From Candidatus Methylomirabilota bacterium (GTDB lineage: Archaea > Thermoproteota > Bathyarchaeia > 40CM-2-53-6): a stretch of DNA of 24,000 nucleotides. Position numbers and translations under genes: made by a program. The number at the start of each line of letters is the position of its first letter. Positions within the stretch are counted from its first letter, which is position 1. The notes beneath the pieces were generated by a model. The model saw only the letters and a program-made list of their open reading frames with translations. It was not told the origin of the DNA and ran no database searches. The DNA lies in NCBI GenBank assembly GCA_035524675.1, contig DATKOK010000073.1, positions 1 to 24,000 of the forward strand, given 5' to 3'. Shown here in pieces: positions 1,233 through 23,962 of the stretch.

Positions 1233-2006
1233 ATGTTGACAGGTTCAATCATTTCGAATGCTCTTGAACAGAAGCGCACTGCTCTGCTCGAGCCGGAGGC
1301 AAAGAACATCTGCAGAGCTTACAATCTTCCTGTCCCCGCATTCAAACTCGCCATCAATGTGAACCAGGCAGTTAAGTACGCTGAGAAGATCGGCTTTCCA
1401 GTTGTCATGAAGATCGTCTCTCCAGACATCCTTCACAAGACAGAGGCAGGCGGTGTCATTCTAGGTCTTCACACGAGAAAAGACGTCGAAAATGGGTTTT
1501 CGAAGCTCTTGTCAAACGCTAAAGCGTTCAAGAAGACCGCCAGGATTCATGGCGTGCTAATTGAACGCATGGCCCCGCCTGGACTCGAGGTTATCGTAGG
1601 CGGCATGCGTGACCAGCAATTCGGACCTGTGGTGATGTTCGGCTTGGGCGGAATATTCACACAAGTGCTCGAGGACGTCACTTTTGGTCTCGTCCCGATA
1701 AAGAAATCCGAAGTCCGCGAGATGATCAGAGGAATCAAAGGATACCAAGCGCTCACAGGATTCAGGGGCATGCTTCCCGTCGACGAAGGAGCCATTGCGT
1801 CGACTGTCGTTCAGGTCTCCAAGATCATGAATGAAAATCAACAGATCGGTCAAATAGACCTTAATCCAGTGAGGGCATACAGTCGCGGCTGTTCAGTGGT
1901 AGATGCACGAATCCTGCTTGCATCCGCGCACGGGACCAAGCGCGAGTTGACCAAGAATGATGGCTCCAGTCCAAGAAAAAAAACAAATTGCTCCACCTAC
2001 CGATGA
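1233..2006 (+). CDS. ATP-grasp protein resembling the beta subunit of ADP-forming acetyl/acyl-CoA synthetase (ACD)
   Basis: The layout is typical of ACD-beta / ATP-grasp_5: LLEPEAKNICRAYNLPVP, FPVVMKIVSPDILHKTEAGGV, VLIERMAPPGLEVIVGGMRDQQFGPVVMFGLGG and IDLNPV..VVDARILL. No alpha (CoA-binding) subunit is adjacent. The 3' tail overlaps hoxE by 50 nt. Confidence 0.75.
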   Translation: MLTGSIISNALEQKRTALLEPEAKNICRAYNLPVPAFKLAINVNQAVKYAEKIGFPVVMKIVSPDILHKTEAGGVILGLHTRKDVENGFSKLLSNAKAFKKTARIHGVLIERMAPPGLEVIVGGMRDQQFGPVVMFGLGGIFTQVLEDVTFGLVPIKKSEVREMIRGIKGYQALTGFRGMLPVDEGAIASTVVQVSKIMNENQQIGQIDLNPVRAYSRGCSVVDARILLASAHGTKRELTKNDGSSPRKKTNCSTYR

Positions 2007-2466
2007 CAAAAGGTGGAAGCTCGTCCAGGCGACGATGCGCCGTCACGGGCACGCTCCCAACTCGCTGATTGAAACGCTGCACACCGTGCAAGAAACCTTC
2101 GGTTTCCTAGAAAAGCGAAGCCTGGAATACGTGTCATTAGCCCTGCGTGTTCCCCTGAGTCGCGTTTACGGAGTTGCCACATTCTACCACTTCTTCACAC
2201 TCAAACCCCCAGGTGAACACGTCTGCGTCGTGTGCATGGGCACGGCTTGTTACATCAGGGGAGCCCAGAAAGTGCTTCAAGATATCGAGCAGACAGCAGG
2301 AACCAAACCGGGGGAAACGTCCCCTAACGGTCGCGTATCACTCGTGACTGCACGTTGCCTCGGATCATGTGGCCTTGCACCAAACGCGGTCTTCGACGGC
2401 GAAGTCGTTGGCAAGCTCACTCCAGCCGAAGCGCACAAACGAGTTGAAGGATGGATGAAGAAATGA
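1957..2466 (+). CDS. hoxE: HoxE, NuoE-like [2Fe-2S] diaphorase subunit of bidirectional [NiFe] hydrogenase
   Basis: NuoE/HoxE family features are present: LIETLHTVQETFGFL, and the Cys ligands CVVCMGTAC and CLGSCGLAP. It is followed directly by hoxF. Confidence 0.85.
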   Translation: MMAPVQEKKQIAPPTDDKRWKLVQATMRRHGHAPNSLIETLHTVQETFGFLEKRSLEYVSLALRVPLSRVYGVATFYHFFTLKPPGEHVCVVCMGTACYIRGAQKVLQDIEQTAGTKPGETSPNGRVSLVTARCLGSCGLAPNAVFDGEVVGKLTPAEAHKRVEGWMKK

Positions 2467-4100
2467 ACGGCGAAGATCTTGCCAAAATAATGGACGAAGA
2501 GAAACGGAACAAAAAATCTCAGCCGCACCAAATACACGTCTGTATCGCAGCAGCATGCTTGTCGGCGCATAGCGAAAGTCTAAAGGAAGATTTCGTCAAG
2601 GAAATCAAACGCCGAGGAATGGATCACCAATGCAAGGTGAAAGGTGTAGGATGTCTCGGCCTATGCGCTCAAGCACCACTCGTCTCAGTAGAGAGTGAAG
2701 GAGTACTCTATCACGATGTCACGCCTCAAAATGTCCCGCAAATTATCGACGGCCTCGGAAGGAAACCCGTGAAAGAAATTCAAGCATCACTCGAAGTACC
2801 ATTCTTCAGCCGACAGCATAGGGTTGTGCTTGACAATTGCGGGAAAGTTGATCCAGAACGAATTGAAGATTACATCAGCCTCGGCGGCTATTCAGCCCTA
2901 CTCAAAGCACTAAATGAGATGCGCCCACCAGAAGTAATCGAGCAAGTCACTCGCAGCGGGCTTCGAGGACGAGGCGGGGCAGGATACCCAACAGGACTCA
3001 AGTGGAGTACTGTCTCCAAAGCAGTTGGAACAAGAAAATTCGTAGTATGCAATGCCGACGAAGGTGACCCTGGAGCCTTCATGGATCGTACCATTCTGGC
3101 CAGCGATCCCCACAAAGTTTTGGAGGGCATGGCAATAGCCGCATATGCAGTCGGCGCATCAGAAGGTTACATTTACGTTCGAGCCGAATACCCGTTAGCC
3201 GTCAAACGACTCAGAACTGCAGTTCATCAGGCAGAACGGTTGAATATACTCGGGAAGAATATTCTCGGCACTCAGTTCAACTTCAGCATAGAAATCCGGC
3301 TCGGTGCAGGCGCCTTTGTCTGCGGAGAAGAAACAGCACTTCTCGCTTCAATCGAAGGAAAAAGAGGAACACCCCGTCCTCGACCACCTTACCCTGCCGA
3401 ATCAGGATTATGGAACAATCCCACTTTGCTCAACAATGTCGAGACATACGCTCATGTTCCACGCATAATCGCAGAAGGCGGGGAATGGTACTCGAAACTT
3501 GGCACAGAGAAGAGCAAGGGCACAAAGATGTTTGCACTCGCAGGACGAGTTACAAACACTGGACTAATTGAAGTACCAATGGGAATCACGCTCCGTGAAA
3601 TAATCTTCGATATAGGAGGCATTCCGGAAGGCCATAAATTCAAAGCAGTGCAGACAGGCGGACCATCCGGAGGATGCGTCCCAGAGCAATACCTTGACAC
3701 TCCAGTCGACTACGAGTCCCTAACAAGACTAGGGTCCATCATGGGATCAGGAGGAATGATCGTGATGGACGAAACATCATGCATGGTCGACGTTGCGAAA
3801 TATTTCATGGACTTCTGCAAGAGCGAATCTTGCGGCAAATGTATTCCATGCCGCGTCGGCACAGCCCAAATGCATGACATCCTGACCAAGATTACGAACG
3901 GAACCGCAACCATGAATGATCTCGCAACACTCGAAGAGTTGTGCGACGTCGTTCAAAACACAAGCCTCTGCGGTCTAGGACAGACAGCTCCCAACTCGAT
4001 CCTTAGCACGTTACGTTACTTCCGAGATGAATACCTCGCACATATACAACGCAGAACATGTCCGGCCGGAGTCTGCAAGCTACAGGAGCCGTCCACCTAA
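2451..4100 (+). CDS. hoxF: HoxF, NuoF-like NAD(H)/FMN/[4Fe-4S] diaphorase subunit with N-terminal thioredoxin-like [2Fe-2S] domain
   Basis: Motifs seen: [24 protein letters not shown], and the 4Fe-4S site [18 protein letters not shown]-terminal Cys motifs are CIAAAC and GCLGLC. The start is either ATG 2451 or the in-frame ATG 2463, which forms an ATGA overlap with the hoxE stop. Confidence 0.9.
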
Positions 4101-4819
4101 TGGCCACGGCAGTTCACGTCAAGACGTTCAAGATTGACGGCATAGACGTCAGTGGTCGCGAGAACGAGACCATCCTACAAGTCGCACAGGAGAACGGAGT
4201 CTTCATCCCCACACTCTGCCAAGTGAATGGACTATCCTCAGTCGGGGCTTGCCGATTGTGCTTAGTTGAAATAAAGGGCAGACCAAAACTTTTCCCCGCA
4301 TGCACGCTCCCAACAGAAGAAGGCATAGAAGTCGTAACGCAATCCGAGCGACTAAGCAAGTACCGCCGCATGATTCTTGAACTATTGTTCTCGGAACGCA
4401 ACCATATCTGTGCAGTATGCGTGTCAAACGGACATTGTGATCTCCAGGACTTAGCGCAGAAACTAGGAATGACTCATGTCCGCTTTCCATACCGTCATCC
4501 ACTCATGTCAGTCGATGCTTCACACAAACAATTCATCATCGACCATAACCGCTGCATTCTGTGCACTCGCTGCGTCCGCGTCTGCGATGAAATTGAAGGA
4601 GCTCACACCTGGGACGTCATGGGACGAGGCATAGACAACCGAGTAATCGTCGACCTAGACCAGCCCTGGGGAACATCAGAAACCTGCACAAATTGTGGCA
4701 AATGCGTACAAGTCTGCCCCACCGGCGCGCTCTTTGAAAAAGGAAACGCAGTTGGAGAAATGAACAAGAGAAGACAGTTCCTGAGTTACCTAACTGTGAT
4801 GCGAGGGGCTGGAACCTGA
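4100..4819 (+). CDS. hoxU: HoxU, NuoG-N-terminal-like Fe-S subunit ([2Fe-2S] plus [4Fe-4S] clusters)
   Basis: The sequence begins [17 protein letters not shown]. Cluster motifs are [19 protein letters not shown] (2Fe-2S), [23 protein letters not shown] and [13 protein letters not shown] prefer ATG 4100 (TAATG overlap with the hoxF stop) over the tracked 4058 start. Confidence 0.9.
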
Positions 4820-5346
4820 AAGCAAGAATCGCGACCGTCTGGCTGGACGGATGTTCCGGATGTCACATGTCCCTCCTTGACATGGACCAACGCCTGCTTG
4901 AACTAGCCGACAAGATTGATCTGGTCTATAGCCCTCTTGTGGATGCAAAAGAGTTCCCCGAGAATGTAGACGTAACGCTCGTCGAAGGATCAATAAGCAA
5001 TGAAGAGAACCTGGAACAGATTCGACGGATACGCGAGAGAACCAAGATTCTAGTCTCACTAGGCGATTGTGCAGTAACGGGAAACGTCCCATCAATGCGA
5101 AACGAATTCCCCGTAGATCAAGTAATCGACGCCGCATACCATATGCACAACAGAACGGATACAAAGTTTCAGTTCGAGGGAGTACCCAAACTCCTGAAGA
5201 CAGTCACACCCGTTCACTCGGCAGTGAAGGTCGACCTCGTCGTGCCTGGGTGTCCACCCTCGGCAGACGTCATCCACTATACCATAACAGAACTCCTGGA
5301 AGGCAGAATCCCAGACCTAACCACACGGACCCGCTTCGGCAAATAA
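4816..5346 (+). CDS. hoxY: HoxY, [NiFe] hydrogenase small subunit (proximal cluster only), apparent CTG start
   Basis: The in-frame sequence upstream of the tracked ATG 4867 reads [17 protein letters not shown]. That is the conserved small-subunit N-terminus and carries two proximal-cluster Cys. Later ligands are GDCAVTG and VPGCPP. There is no ATG/GTG/TTG between the upstream stop (4735-4737) and 4867. CTG 4816 overlaps the hoxU TGA (CTGA), and GAGGGG lies 7 nt upstream. Confidence 0.85.
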
Positions 5347-5358
5347 CGGTGAGAAAGA

Positions 5359-6780
5359 ATGAGAACAATCGAGATCAAGCCTGTAACTCGCATAGAGGGA
5401 CATGCAAGAATCACAATTGAACTCGACGAAGAGGGAAGCGTACACGACGCGCACTTCCATATCACTCAGTTCCGAGGGTTTGAAAAGTTCTGTGAAGGTC
5501 GCCCATTCTATGAAATGCCCTCACTAATGGCCCGAATATGTGGCATCTGCACGATCAGCCACATGCTTGCTTCAGCAAAAGCTTGCGAAGCCTTAATGGC
5601 CGTACGAGTGCCAGAGACAGCAATCAAACTACGCCGTGTCGCCAACTTAGCGCAGATGATCCAGTCGCATGCCCTAAGCTTCTTCTACCTTGCTGCACCA
5701 GACCTACTCCTCGGAATGGACGCAGACCCGGCCCAACGTAACATATACGGGCTCATGAAAACGAACCCACAATTTGTACGCGACGGCGTCCGACTTCGAC
5801 AATTCGGGCAAGAGATAATTGAGCTCCTCGCTGGCAAACGATTACACCCGACATGGATAGTTCCCGGAGGAGTAAACTCACCTCTCACAGTTGAGACCAG
5901 AGACAAAATCCTCGCATCAATTCCTGAAGCATTAGGCATCATACAGCGCACGTTGAACTGGTACAAGACCGTCCTTGACAATTACCGCGAAGAGATTCGC
6001 ACCTTCGCAACCTTCCCGTCCCTATTCATGGGTCTCGTAACTCCGACAGGAGAGCTGGAACATTACCATGGACGCCTGAGAGTCGTTGATCCAACCGGAA
6101 CTATCGTAGAGGACCAAATCGACCCCAAGCTATATCCAAGCTACATCGAGGAAGAAGTACTACCATACTCATATCTCAAGGCCCCCTACTACAAATCGCG
6201 CGGATACCCAGAAGGAATCTACCGCGTAGGACCACTTGCACGCCTCAACATAATAGACCGCACTGGGACACCAAGAGCAGAGGAAGAATGGGTCGAGTAC
6301 AGAGCGCTCAGAAGACAGGCTAACCTAAGCAACTTTCACAACCACTATGCCAGATTGATCGAAATCCTCTACTCCATCGAACGAATTGAACAACACCTAA
6401 ACGACCCTGAAATTACAAGCAGTCACGTCCGAGCATACGCCTCACCTAACAATAACGAAGGCATAGGCGTCACAGAAGCCCCTCGAGGAACATTGATACA
6501 CCATTACAAAATCAACGAAGATGGGCTAGTAAACTGGGCGAACCTCATAGTCGCGACCGGCCACAATAACCTCGCAATGAATCGTGGCGTACTACAAGTC
6601 GCAAAACATTTCGTGACAGGAAACCATCTGCAGGAAGGCATCCTAAACCGCGTGGAAGCAGTTATCAGAACCTTCGACCCCTGTCTAAGTTGCTCAACCC
6701 ACGCAATAGGCCAGATGCCACTTGACATACGTCTCATGGATGCTCAAGGTCGCACGCTAGACCGTCTGAAACGAGATTGA
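5359..6780 (+). CDS. hoxH: HoxH, [NiFe] hydrogenase large (catalytic) subunit
   Basis: RIEGH and RICGICTISH provide the N-terminal CxxC ligands. The C-terminal DPCLSCSTH is followed by a 25-aa tail, which is the expected protease substrate. The gene is partnered with hoxEFUY, the group 3d architecture. Confidence 0.95.
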   Translation: MRTIEIKPVTRIEGHARITIELDEEGSVHDAHFHITQFRGFEKFCEGRPFYEMPSLMARICGICTISHMLASAKACEALMAVRVPETAIKLRRVANLAQMIQSHALSFFYLAAPDLLLGMDADPAQRNIYGLMKTNPQFVRDGVRLRQFGQEIIELLAGKRLHPTWIVPGGVNSPLTVETRDKILASIPEALGIIQRTLNWYKTVLDNYREEIRTFATFPSLFMGLVTPTGELEHYHGRLRVVDPTGTIVEDQIDPKLYPSYIEEEVLPYSYLKAPYYKSRGYPEGIYRVGPLARLNIIDRTGTPRAEEEWVEYRALRRQANLSNFHNHYARLIEILYSIERIEQHLNDPEITSSHVRAYASPNNNEGIGVTEAPRGTLIHHYKINEDGLVNWANLIVATGHNNLAMNRGVLQVAKHFVTGNHLQEGILNRVEAVIRTFDPCLSCSTHAIGQMPLDIRLMDAQGRTLDRLKRD

Positions 6781-7226
6781 ATCAAGTGCACTCCGTGTTA
6801 GTGATAGGATACGGAAATAGTCTACGCGGAGACGACGGAATCGGCATAGCAGCCGCCGAACAGCTCCGTGACACCATACAAAACAGCCGAGTAAGAATCA
6901 TTACATGTCAACAATTAACCCCAGAACTCGCAAACGAGATGAGCAAAGTCGACCGCGTAATAATGATTGACGCCGCCAAAGGAGAAACACCGGGTCAAGT
7001 CACAGTCACGAAAATCGAAACAAGCAATGACTCAGCGACATTCACACATGAACTTCAACCATCCACACTGCTAGCATGCTCACAAGAACTCTACGGGAAA
7101 AATCCCGCAACATACCTTGTATCTGTAACAGGATACTCATTCGACTTTAGTGACGAATTATCGGATGGCGTAACGCTGATCATGCCTCAAGTTCTCACGC
7201 GAATTCGCGAACTCATAGATCAATAA
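6777..7226 (+). CDS. hoxW: HoxW-type hydrogenase maturation endopeptidase
   Basis: The N-terminal VLVIGYGNSLRGDDGIG motif matches HoxW/HybD/HycI proteases. The gene sits immediately 3' of hoxH. The start is TTG 6777 (TTGA overlap with the hoxH stop) or the in-frame GTG 6786. Confidence 0.85.
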   Translation: MNQVHSVLVIGYGNSLRGDDGIGIAAAEQLRDTIQNSRVRIITCQQLTPELANEMSKVDRVIMIDAAKGETPGQVTVTKIETSNDSATFTHELQPSTLLACSQELYGKNPATYLVSVTGYSFDFSDELSDGVTLIMPQVLTRIRELIDQ

Positions 7227-10308: not shown

Positions 10309-10545
10309 TTGAGCGAATCATCCAGAGTCGCACAAATAGCTAGAAGAATCGTATTCATGTTTCAATTCTACAAGCAGAATATTGACCCTGACGACGAAGT
10401 TTTTGTCACATTCGTCTCCAATTATCTTGAAAGAAAAAAAGTGAATGTTAAAACGATCTCGTACTATGAGTTGTATACGCACGTCAAAAATGCAATCCGC
10501 GAATACCTGCAAACAGGAGACAGCAAGCCACGAAACGACGCATAA
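10309..10545 (+). CDS. Hypothetical small soluble protein (78 aa from TTG; 62 aa from the internal ATG)
   Basis: The ORF is open, has protein-like composition, is co-directional and packs tightly between the AKR gene and fap7. I recognise no motif. Confidence 0.35.
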   Translation: MSESSRVAQIARRIVFMFQFYKQNIDPDDEVFVTFVSNYLERKKVNVKTISYYELYTHVKNAIREYLQTGDSKPRNDA

Positions 10546-11111
10546 TCGTAATCACCGGAACCCCGGGCACCGGGAAGACCACCTTTGCAAGAAGGCTCGC
10601 ATGCGAGCTGAATGCAGAGTATCTCTCTCTTGGAAATTACATTACGAGGCGGCGACTATTCAGCAGGCTCGATGAGAGGAGAAGCACGAGAGTAGTCGAC
10701 ATGGCTAAAACCCGCCGCCAAGTGCGCAGACTCACCGCCGCCATCAATAATTGTCCCTTAGTAGTGGACACACACCATCCCGAAGGAATCATCCCAAATA
10801 AGATGGCCACAATCGTTTTCGTGCTCAGGTGCAACCCCGTCATCCTCAGACGCCGACTACGACGAAAGAAGTGGAGCAGAAAGAAGATTCGAGAGAATGT
10901 CATGGCCGAGACGCTGGACTCATGTTACATACACGCCGCGTCATACTATGCTATGAAGAAGCTAGTGCAACTGGACACGTCGCATTCGACCCCAGAGCGA
11001 TCCGTAAGAACCGCGAAGAGTATCCTATCAGGAGGTAAAGCACCGATTCTCAAGGTCAATTGGTTACGCAATCTGGAAAGCGACTTGTCACTTTCAAAGC
11101 TCCTCGGGTGA
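10542..11111 (+). CDS. Fap7/AK6-type adenylate kinase-like NTPase (ribosome biogenesis factor), apparent ATA/ATC start
   Basis: The in-frame sequence upstream of the tracked ATG 10701 reads RRIIVITGTPGTGKTTFARRLA, which is beta1 plus the Walker A motif. Downstream, VVDTHH, VFVLRCNPVILRRRLRRKKWSRKKIRENVMAE and VNWL match archaeal Fap7 as I remember it. No ATG/GTG/TTG exists between the stop at 10467-10469 and 10701. Confidence 0.75.
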   Translation: MIVITGTPGTGKTTFARRLACELNAEYLSLGNYITRRRLFSRLDERRSTRVVDMAKTRRQVRRLTAAINNCPLVVDTHHPEGIIPNKMATIVFVLRCNPVILRRRLRRKKWSRKKIRENVMAETLDSCYIHAASYYAMKKLVQLDTSHSTPERSVRTAKSILSGGKAPILKVNWLRNLESDLSLSKLLG

Positions 11112-21880: not shown

Positions 21881-22300
21881 TCAGGCTTCACTGTGCCGGA
21901 TAGCGTTACCGTGCTGACATTGATTAGGTCGGTTGAGCGCCTTACACATTTCAGCGACGAGGTCAGGATCGAGTAAGTAATCAATTTTCGAGGCTTCTGC
22001 ACAAGAGCGTTTGGAATCAAATCCAAGTTTCGTGTTAAAGTAAGATTCAACGATTCTGTGTTGATGCATTATTGACTCGGCGACGACGACGCCTCTTTTT
22101 GTCAATACTGGTGCCTTCCATGGTTTCTTTGCTACGAGATGTTTTTGTTCGAGCTTATCTAAGATTTCAATCGTTGTAGGCAGCCTCACGTCGAATCTCT
22201 TAGCCAACGTGGAGACTGAAGCGGAGTCGTTTGATTCGCTGAGACGGTACATTGCTTGCAAATACGCTACTTCGGACCTGCTTAATTCAGGGAGCTTCAG
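21881..22300 (-). CDS. DtxR/MntR-family metal-dependent transcriptional regulator (short form, no SH3-like domain), apparent CTG start
   Basis: LSRSEVAYLQAMYRL matches helix 1 of DtxR/MntR, followed by the wHTH VSTLAKRFDVRLPTTIEILDKLEQKHLV. The dimerisation/metal region includes HQHRIVESYF and CQHGNAI. The first canonical start (TTG 22261) falls inside helix 1. CTG 22300 has a perfect GGAGGT 8 nt upstream. Confidence 0.75.
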   Translation of the reverse strand: MKLPELSRSEVAYLQAMYRLSESNDSASVSTLAKRFDVRLPTTIEILDKLEQKHLVAKKPWKAPVLTKRGVVVAESIMHQHRIVESYFNTKLGFDSKRSCAEASKIDYLLDPDLVAEMCKALNRPNQCQHGNAIRHSEA

Positions 22301-22350: not shown

Positions 22351-23202
22351 TCACCTGGAATGTGATCCAATCCACTTTGCCACCATCGTAGTGAGAAGTA
22401 ATCCTAGCCCGACCAGCACAATTGTTCCGCCGGGCGCAGCGTGAGGTTGGATTATAGAGACAAGCATCCCCACGATCACCGACAATGATCCGAAGATGGG
22501 TGAGAGTAAGACAGTTTGCTTGAAGGACCGGGCGATTTGCATACTGGTTAACGCCGGAAGCACGAGGAGTGCCGATATGAGCAGGATGCCTACTATTGGG
22601 ATTGAAACGATAACTGTTATTCCGGCGAGTAACGCCAGCAAATAATCAAACCTGCAGGTTACTATCCCTGAAGCTCTAGCCTGGACCTCATCGAAGATCG
22701 TGTAGAGTAATTGCTTGTAAAATGTGAATAATATCAGTACTGTCACTACCAGAACGAACGCGGCGGCGTAGATCTGGTTCCATGTGACAAGCAAGATACT
22801 TCCAAAGAGCAATGCGTCCAGATTGAAACCGTAATTCAGCGTGACGCTCGTAACAAAAATCCCTGTGGCCAGCCCAAGTTCTAGAAAAACTGCCACTGCC
22901 GCGTCGCCGCTGAACCTTGCGGAACGAATAGTCTTCGTGATCATTATGGACCCAAGCACAACTATCGCGCCCCCAATCAAGTATGGGTTGACTCCTGACA
23001 AGCTAGGGATTAGTGCTCCGATGGCAAGTCCTATTGCGATTCCTCCGTAGGCAGTGTGTGCGAGGCCGTCGCCGATGAGGGACAACCTCTTGAGCACAAT
23101 GTACACGCTTAAGATCGAGCTTAGGACTGCTACGATTATTCCTATGATGAAGGCGCGCTGGATGAACCCAGCGTTGAGATATGTGAGGATCGGATTAAGG
23201 AT
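22351..23202 (-). CDS. ABC-3 family metal (Zn/Mn/Fe-type) importer permease, apparent ATC start
   Basis: RLSLIGDGLAHTAYGGIAIG is the family signature, and the protein is polytopic. The in-frame sequence upstream of the tracked GTG 23106 reads LTYLNAGFIQRAFIIGIIVAVLSSILSV, which is the conserved first TM helix. There is no ATG/GTG/TTG between the stop at 23218-23220 and 23106. ATC 23202 or ATC 23190 are the candidate starts. Confidence 0.85.
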   Translation of the reverse strand: MLNPILTYLNAGFIQRAFIIGIIVAVLSSILSVYIVLKRLSLIGDGLAHTAYGGIAIGLAIGALIPSLSGVNPYLIGGAIVVLGSIMITKTIRSARFSGDAAVAVFLELGLATGIFVTSVTLNYGFNLDALLFGSILLVTWNQIYAAAFVLVVTVLILFTFYKQLLYTIFDEVQARASGIVTCRFDYLLALLAGITVIVSIPIVGILLISALLVLPALTSMQIARSFKQTVLLSPIFGSLSVIVGMLVSIIQPHAAPGGTIVLVGLGLLLTTMVAKWIGSHSR

Positions 23203-23962
23203 GGTCTCCGTGTTTGATCACTTCAACTGCGTAATTGTAGGCTTTCGGGAGGATTGAGTCTGCGTCGAATCGGGTCGTCAGACCGTCGAAGTACAATCGG
23301 CGGTTTATGCATATGATTGTCCGGGCGAGCTGCGTTACGACTCCGAGATCGTGGATCGAGAGGATCGTTGTGATGCCGAGGTCTCTGTTAAGTTGCTCTA
23401 GGATGCCGTAGAACTCTTTCTTCGCTTCCATGTCGACACCACTCGTAGGTTCATCGAATATCAGCATCTGGGGTTCTCCCACCAGGGCCTTGGCTGTGAA
23501 GACTCGTTGTGTTTGTCCGCCTGAGAGTTCGCCGATTCGCCTCTTTCTAAGATGTTCAATTTCGAGCCGATTCAATGCTTCCTCGACTTTGCGATGATCT
23601 TCTTTCCTGAACCATGGGGAATGCATCGAGTATGGGACTCGTCCCATCAGTACGGCTTCGTAGACTGTTGAAGGGAAATTGCTATCTTTCGAATAGGGTA
23701 TTTGAGGGACGTAACCTATCCTTTTCAGATTATTTGGGGAGATTGGTTCTCCGAAGAGACGGACAGTTCCTGTGGTTGGTTTTATGATGCCGAGTATTAC
23801 GTTGAGGAGGGTTGATTTTCCTGCACCGTTAGGTCCTATGAGGCCAACGAAGTCGCCTTTATGGATCTCTAGGGTTATGTGTTCGAGTGCTTGGACGTCG
23901 CCTGGGTATGTGACGCCGACGTCATTTAGTTGAACTATTGTTTCTTTTGAGTCAGCCTTCAT
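23195..23962 (-). CDS. ABC-3 family metal importer ATP-binding protein (ZnuC/MntA/TroB-like)
   Basis: Walker A is GPNGAGKST, the signature motif is LSGGQ, Walker B is LIFDEPTSGVD, and the H-loop is SIHDL. It is followed by the cognate permease. Confidence 0.9.
   Translation of the reverse strand: MKADSKETIVQLNDVGVTYPGDVQALEHITLEIHKGDFVGLIGPNGAGKSTLLNVILGIIKPTTGTVRLFGEPISPNNLKRIGYVPQIPYSKDSNFPSTVYEAVLMGRVPYSMHSPWFRKEDHRKVEEALNRLEIEHLRKRRIGELSGGQTQRVFTAKALVGEPQMLIFDEPTSGVDMEAKKEFYGILEQLNRDLGITTILSIHDLGVVTQLARTIICINRRLYFDGLTTRFDADSILPKAYNYAVEVIKHGDHP

Follow-up and report, generated by a model that had tools for sequence, protein, structure and literature searches.

A CTG codon overlapping the hoxU stop codon as the probable start of hoxY in an uncultured soil archaeon of the Bathyarchaeia

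Co-directional genes joined by a four-nucleotide ATGA overlap have been described as translationally coupled systems (Huber et al. 2019, PMC6728339; PMC10666635). In overlapping gene pairs of Haloferax volcanii, translation of the downstream gene is strictly dependent on translation of the upstream gene, and a Shine–Dalgarno (SD) sequence aids re-initiation (PMC6728339). The present study concerns the junction of the hydrogenase genes hoxU and hoxY in a stretch of 24,000 nucleotides of contig DATKOK010000073.1 (assembly GCA_035524675.1), which is referred to as the window. Like the coupled ATGA pairs, hoxU and hoxY are co-directional and encode subunits of one complex, the proposed start codon of the second gene shares two bases with the UGA of the first, an SD-like motif lies within the upstream gene, and the hoxU–hoxY junctions of relatives have the canonical form. 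The difference is in the first base of hoxY, which is C and makes the codon CUG; the published experiments used AUG or GUG, and the coupling at this junction is a prediction.

Near-cognate start codons of prokaryotes include AUU of the bacterial infC gene, and CUG starts have been reported in Deinococcus and Caulobacter. In H. volcanii, ribosome profiling found near-cognate codons at about 30% of the alternative initiation sites (PMC7261190). The hoxY gene shares with known near-cognate starts (PMC5622118, PMC7261190) the features of an intact conserved gene in which AUG, GUG and UUG are all missing ahead of essential N-terminal residues and one near-cognate codon occupies the homologous start position. 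It differs from them in that its CTG is recent and lineage-specific rather than an anciently conserved regulatory start, and in that it belongs to an uncultured archaeon known from its sequence alone. The predicted product is similar to HoxY/HydS, the minimal small subunits of NAD-linked group 3 [NiFe] hydrogenases (5xf9 chain C, 7t2r chain E), in its size (about 176–189 residues), in the N-terminal strand followed by a CxxC motif, in the single proximal [4Fe-4S] cluster and in the gene order hoxEFUYH plus protease. Unlike these proteins, it has an archaeal host and a non-canonical start, and the Hyp maturation genes were not found in its assembly. A near-cognate start at a stop/start overlap is of a known kind, and the particular value of the hoxY case is the recent switch with canonical sister junctions.

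An earlier note, made from the sequence alone, had proposed that hoxY lacks a canonical start upstream of its first cysteine ligands, and its coordinates all proved to match. The hoxY frame opens after an in-frame TGA within hoxU, and the 43 sense codons from 4738 to 4866 include no ATG, GTG or TTG. Such a run would occur by chance with P ~0.11 and is not improbable alone; the missing canonical start is meaningful because the homologues start at the CTG position, not because of the chance odds. Both cysteine codons of the CxxC motif (TGT 4852–4854 and TGT 4861–4863) lie upstream of ATG 4867, so that a start at this ATG loses two cluster ligands, as the note had stated. The overlap of CTG 4816 with the hoxU stop and the purine-rich motif preceding it are likewise read directly from the sequence.

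The alignment with homologues indicates where hoxY begins. In 101 full-length homologues the protein starts with M-K/S-... at the CTG position or not more than one or two codons away. At the homologous position, ATGA occurs in five genomes of the same genus (G002, G003, G007, G011 and G022) and in another seven metagenome lineages; these are all 12 distinct related junctions that were read, and CTG 4816 aligns codon for codon with the HoxY ATG starts in those 12 junctions. The description of the site as a coupled ATGA junction with C in place of A is therefore borne out by the relatives. The last sense codon of hoxU is ACC (Thr) versus ACA in the nearest relatives, and the A-to-C change is synonymous in hoxU, so that nothing in the upstream gene stood in its way. 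The ancestral overlap was thus ATGA, and the substitution that made it CTGA became fixed in the population.

The C at position 4816 is a real base and not an assembly error, and it is fixed in at least four haplotypes. CTGA is present in three independent contigs (L039, L043 and L045) from three different JGI metagenomes, each of which differs from the window by 16–18 single-nucleotide polymorphisms (SNPs) and also from the other two. The CTG lineage thus comprises the window and three near-identical contigs (99.5%), with a nucleotide diversity of about 0.5%. The earlier note had named an A at this position as the observation that would make the junction an ordinary one; C was found in all four of these distinct assembled haplotypes. 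The supposition of an error (true base A) could draw on the origin of the window from a metagenome-assembled genome, the source assembly G000, which has 1.85 Mb in 180 contigs, 93.6% completeness and 5.3% contamination, but contigs assembled independently from three other samples and distinguishable by their SNPs all read C, which makes it scarcely credible.

A genome-wide scan (1.85 Mb) for CTGA junctions with a long open frame behind them yielded 15 hits, among which hoxY is the sole junction whose downstream gene needs the CTG. In most of the other 14, a canonical start coincides with the junction, precedes it or follows it within three codons; on inspection, hit C47 turned out to have an ordinary ATG start and hit C147 to be non-coding. 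Since these hits are explained away, CTGA coupling is no general habit that such a scan can detect.

The reading frame downstream of the CTG bears the marks of an intact gene. The product matches the Oxidored_q6 family (PF01058) with 109.3 bits against a cut-off of 27 over profile positions 1–128, and its best solved relatives, 7t2r_E (8.7e-47), 5odc_E and 5xf9_C (4.3e-37), are aligned from residue 2–4 onward. All four cysteine ligands of the proximal cluster (N-terminal CxxC, GDC and PGCPP) are present in frame from CTG 4816 and fall in columns with a conservation of 95% or more among the homologues; the CxxC motif is invariant among the homologues and the solved structures. In the 71 columns conserved at this level, HoxY retains the consensus residue in every one. 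No stop or frameshift was found in hoxY in the four CTG haplotypes.

The ratio of non-synonymous to synonymous substitution rates (dN/dS) of hoxY is 0.06–0.09 against the nearest ATG relatives and 0.06–0.08 among the ATG relatives themselves, and a relative-rate check revealed no acceleration (dN to outgroup L003 of 0.100 for the window versus 0.099 for L046), although neither the branch dN/dS nor the relative-rate test can date the substitution. Within the CTG lineage, the four haplotypes carry two non-synonymous and two synonymous hoxY polymorphisms. The neutral expectation for the non-synonymous class is 8.8 by the pooled synonymous polymorphism (pS; P = 0.007) and 6.2 by the gene's own pS (P = 0.05). 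These polymorphism counts, though based on few sites, suggest that hoxY is still under constraint after the CTG change.

The ribosome-binding context of the CTG is similar to that of canonical starts. The tail of the source genome's own 16S rRNA reads ...GGATCACCTCCT. Genome-wide, the SD-like tetramers GAGG, GGAG and GGTG, taken together, peak at −15 to −11 relative to start codons, and the GAGG before the hoxY CTG begins at −13. The motif itself is weak, and the best pairing with the anti-SD uses the neighbouring GTGAT at 4796–4800. The duplex predicted for hoxY has an energy of −7.6 kcal/mol and those of the nearest ATG relatives −6.6 to −7.5 kcal/mol; a compensatory strengthening of the SD was rejected as the energy is the same as in these relatives. 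In a search for an unusual initiator tRNA, no Met tRNA gene was detected by ARAGORN or Rfam RF00005 among the mere 10–11 tRNAs detectable in the 1.85-Mb assembly, most of which are predicted with introns.

It is likely that CTG 4816 is the working start of hoxY and is used by ribosomes that have just terminated on hoxU, probably at reduced yield. This reading rests on an intact and constrained gene, an SD-like sequence at the preferred distance and three other genes of the window with near-cognate start candidates. According to the proposed mechanism, ribosomes translating hoxU would terminate at UGA 4817–4819 and stay on the mRNA, aided by the SD-like sequence 8–20 nt upstream. Re-initiation would take place one base back, with the initiator tRNA placed on the near-cognate CUG. 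The product would be a full-length HoxY of 176 residues that retains the two N-terminal cysteines binding the proximal [4Fe-4S] cluster, and the yield of HoxY per translation of hoxU would probably be lower than with AUG.

Several points weigh against this reading. CUG is commonly held to be a very weak start in de novo bacterial initiation. The codon is restricted to one species-level lineage, and all the other lineages have ATG. The ratio of non-synonymous to synonymous polymorphism (pN/pS) of hoxY is 0.32, nominally above the 0.13 of the other hox genes (Fisher P = 0.58), and the population test is based on just four hoxY polymorphisms. HypD, HypF and an above-cut-off HypE were not found in the 93.6% complete source assembly, so that the hydrogenase may be inactive. 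Besides, annotated start codons hardly ever switch from AUG to CUG (2 of 61,358; PMC5622118).

Three other genes of the window may also use near-cognate starts. In fap7 (Fap7/adenylate-kinase-6; window 10470–10703), an ATA at 10542–10544 overlaps a TAA at 10543–10545. This ATA is located four codons before the P-loop, on the stop codon (TAA or TAG) of an upstream open reading frame (ORF) of 80–91 codons, and the overlap is kept in five species (G000, G002, G003, G007 and G008; loci L051–L054). In three of the five there is no canonical start before the P-loop, and in the remaining two the sole one is a GTG at a distance of two codons ahead of it; more distant members of the genus have an ATG further upstream. 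In the gene of a metal ABC permease (23200–23211, minus strand; loci L081–L083), an ACG and, two codons on, an ATC stand where G004 has ATG. This arrangement is common to G000, G002 and G014, the first membrane helix is not preceded by any canonical start, and the start region overlaps the end of the ATPase gene. The gene of an MntR/DtxR-like regulator (22298–22300, minus strand; loci L067–L072) has CTG behind GGAGGT; the same position is occupied by TTG in G002, G003 and G021 and by ATG in G011, G017 and G018, and this is the second lineage-specific switch to CTG in the window.

Thus, in four genes within 24 kb the homologous start position is occupied by a near-cognate codon, and two of these cases are conserved across species. 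The lineage appears to be generally tolerant of near-cognate starts, above all at gene overlaps. As a more tentative extension, for which the odds seem somewhat less than even, the genus may have a relaxed stringency of start selection, chiefly after termination on an overlapping stop codon, such that CUG, AUA, ACG and AUC work and the identity of the start codon drifts in a nearly neutral manner. If so, the ATG-to-CTG change of hoxY and the TTG-to-CTG change of the MntR-like gene would be recent cases of such drift, and the ATA of fap7 in five species and the ACG/ATC of the permease in three species would be older ones.

The same data can be read as a recent loss of the start. In that case, the A-to-C substitution would have been fixed by drift or hitch-hiking, HoxY would be absent or made in traces, and the hydrogenase module would be starting to decay or already dispensable. 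The confinement of the CTG to one shallow lineage with its low diversity agrees with such a loss, the dN/dS values over long branches cannot date the event, and the pN/pS of hoxY nominally exceeds the value of its neighbours. The searches of G000 yielded neither HypD nor HypF, and some related lineages (L037, L042 and L047) have deleted hoxEFU altogether. However, G002 and G003, which bear the ATG, lack the Hyp genes just as well, the four haplotypes contain no disabling mutation, their non-synonymous polymorphisms are fewer than expected under neutrality, and hoxH and hoxW downstream are intact. A dying-gene account would also be needed four times; two of the near-cognate candidates of the window are conserved across species, and one of these, the ribosome-biogenesis gene fap7, is unlikely to be dead, whereas tolerance of near-cognate starts explains all four. 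A loss of the start is regarded as unlikely, but it is the main rival reading.

The remaining alternatives concern the place at which a functional HoxY might begin. The earlier note had listed ATC 4828 as a second candidate, and CTG 4843 corresponds to the start of the database protein P0003. Each is an in-frame codon upstream of the cysteines, so that a start there would give a slightly shorter HoxY with the CxxC motif. Neither is aligned with the start of any homologue or touches the hoxU stop, and with distances of 19 and 34 nt from the SD-like motif they fall outside the genomic peak. A start at either would also cost the protein some or all of its first beta strand (K-A-R-I-A-T-V-W), a segment that takes part in the alignment with every solved structure. 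The ATC is an ordinary Ile codon of this strand, conserved in all homologues, and CTG 4843, which has no SD, would delete the strand. Of the claim made for ATC 4828, its position in frame before the cysteines holds, but its distance and its role as a conserved Ile codon speak against it, and initiation at either codon is improbable. ATG 4867 is the sole canonical start and the choice of gene callers, and it would require that a product of 159 residues functions without CxxC. Such a protein loses two of the four cluster ligands and the first beta strand, which are invariant in the 101 homologues and present in every solved relative; the codons upstream of this ATG are conserved as coding sequence in all relatives, and no SD precedes it. 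This possibility can be practically dismissed. A HoxU–HoxY fusion produced by −1 ribosomal frameshifting in 4738–4816, where both frames are open, is highly improbable as well. The hoxY frame is indeed open for 26 codons upstream of the CTG, at −1 to hoxU, and an A-run, GAAAAAG 4736–4742, is present at the start of the open overlap. However, the hoxU frame reads GAA AAA GGA here and contains no heptamer of the X-XXY-YYZ type, and the run encodes a conserved Phe-Glu-Lys-Gly and occurs also in G007, where the hoxY frame has a stop two codons before the ATG. The extension of the hoxY frame is closed in G007, G011 and G022, and it is open in G002 and G003 although these have the ATG; an open frame at this place is therefore incidental. 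Thus the fusion product, which the note had mentioned as contrary to its proposal, left no sign in the sequences. Initiation at CTG 4816 remains the preferred reading.

The database entries of HoxY in this clade are often shorter than the alignment requires (P0033–P0064; 159 or 154 residues). The abundance of 159-residue homologues was considered as a sign of widespread non-canonical hoxY starts, but this was rejected, since their DNA has a normal ATGA. In every checked lineage with an ATGA start, the automatic calls use an internal ATG and drop the CxxC motif, and these short entries are gene-caller artefacts. The other public HoxY entries of 159 or 154 residues from the clade look defective but probably are not.

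Two further arrangements of hoxY-like genes were observed among the relatives. In locus L008 (G046, same order; approximately 1490–1530, minus strand), the gene of a HoxY-like small subunit (43% identity) shows ATT at the position of the ATG in homologues; the ATT lies 7 nt after a run of eight G, three stops are found just upstream, and there is no canonical start in frame. In the metagenome contigs L037, L042 and L047, hoxY–hoxH directly follow an ATP-grasp gene and hoxE, hoxF and hoxU are gone; what is left before hoxY is a remnant of roughly 25 nt from the 3′ end of the former hoxU, which contains the SD-like motif and ATGA.

The gap in the Hyp maturation genes is not peculiar to the CTG lineage. 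Neither G002 nor G003, both with the ATG, yielded HypD, HypF or an above-cut-off HypE, and fragmented assemblies lack the Hyp genes too; G002 has a piece of hypF at the end of a contig, so that assembly gaps are possible. The gap, being common to ATG-bearing relatives, does not discriminate between the hypotheses. In the genus as a whole, HypD was found in 6 of 23 genomes, of which G013 carries a hypF–hypD–hypE cluster. HypD is missing from most genomes bearing hox or Mvh-type hydrogenases, including G002, G014, G010, G016 and G018, which are reported as 99–100% complete and consist of few contigs.

The host is an uncultured soil archaeon of the Bathyarchaeia. The 16S rRNA of the source genome is archaeal, and the nearest homologues of the window HoxY carry the source label Candidatus Bathyarchaeia. 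The window contains a complete hoxE-hoxF-hoxU-hoxY-hoxH operon with a maturation endopeptidase at 1957–7226 (Table 1). The hoxU start is likely to be ATG 4100, because the match to the HoxU equivalog begins at residue 19 of the long ORF. Overlapping junctions are also found elsewhere in the operon, with ATGA at 2463–2466 between hoxE and hoxF and TTGA between hoxH and hoxW. The product of hoxH has kept both metal-binding motifs (RICGIC...H and DPCLSCSTH) and the cleavable C-terminal extension.

Table 1. Genes of the hox operon and sequence elements of the hoxU–hoxY junction, in window coordinates.
Feature	Position	Strand	Basis or remark
hoxE, NuoE-like diaphorase subunit	1957..2466	+	NCBIfam HoxE equivalog, 240.9 bits vs cut-off 224
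hoxF, NuoF-like, FMN/NAD-binding subunit	2451..4100	+	NuoF_fam, Complex1_51K and NADH_4Fe-4S matches
hoxU, NuoG-like Fe-S subunit, stop TGA 4817–4819	4100..4819	+	NCBIfam HoxU equivalog, 402.9 bits vs cut-off 333
In-frame TGA opening the hoxY frame	4735..4737	+	Read from sequence
Purine-rich SD-like GAGGGG within hoxU, 7 nt 5′ of CTG	4803..4808	+	
CTG, proposed hoxY start, in CTGA 4816–4819 sharing TG with the hoxU stop TGA 4817–4819	4816..4818	+	
hoxY, minimal [NiFe]-hydrogenase small subunit, 176 codons from CTG	4816..5346	+	Pfam Oxidored_q6, 1.4e-31
ATC, weaker near-cognate start candidate	4828..4830	+	19 nt from SD-like motif
CTG of one public gene call (167-aa product)	4843..4845	+	Database protein P0003 begins MDGCSGC...
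Cys-Ser-Gly-Cys, first two proximal [4Fe-4S] cluster ligands	4852..4863	+	TGT 4852–4854, TGT 4861–4863
ATG, first canonical start, 3′ of the CxxC motif	4867..4869	+	Picked by automatic gene callers, 159-aa product
hoxH, [NiFe] large subunit, intact	5359..6780	+	Pfam NiFeSe_Hases match
hoxW-type maturation endopeptidase	6777..7226	+	TIGR00072, 95.6 bits vs cut-off 47

The public calls of the window HoxY, with 159 or 167 residues, lack the cluster ligands or the first strand, and surveys of Bathyarchaeia hydrogenases that rely on short calls can misjudge HoxY as defective. Together with hoxY, the three further cases in 24 kb suggest that programs accepting no start codons but ATG, GTG and TTG make systematic errors in placing the gene starts of this clade. 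If the CTG works, the junction would represent a natural single-base experiment, in which the same coupled junction has AUG in the sister lineages and CUG here, and it would raise the question of how far archaeal termination-reinitiation depends on the identity of the restart codon.

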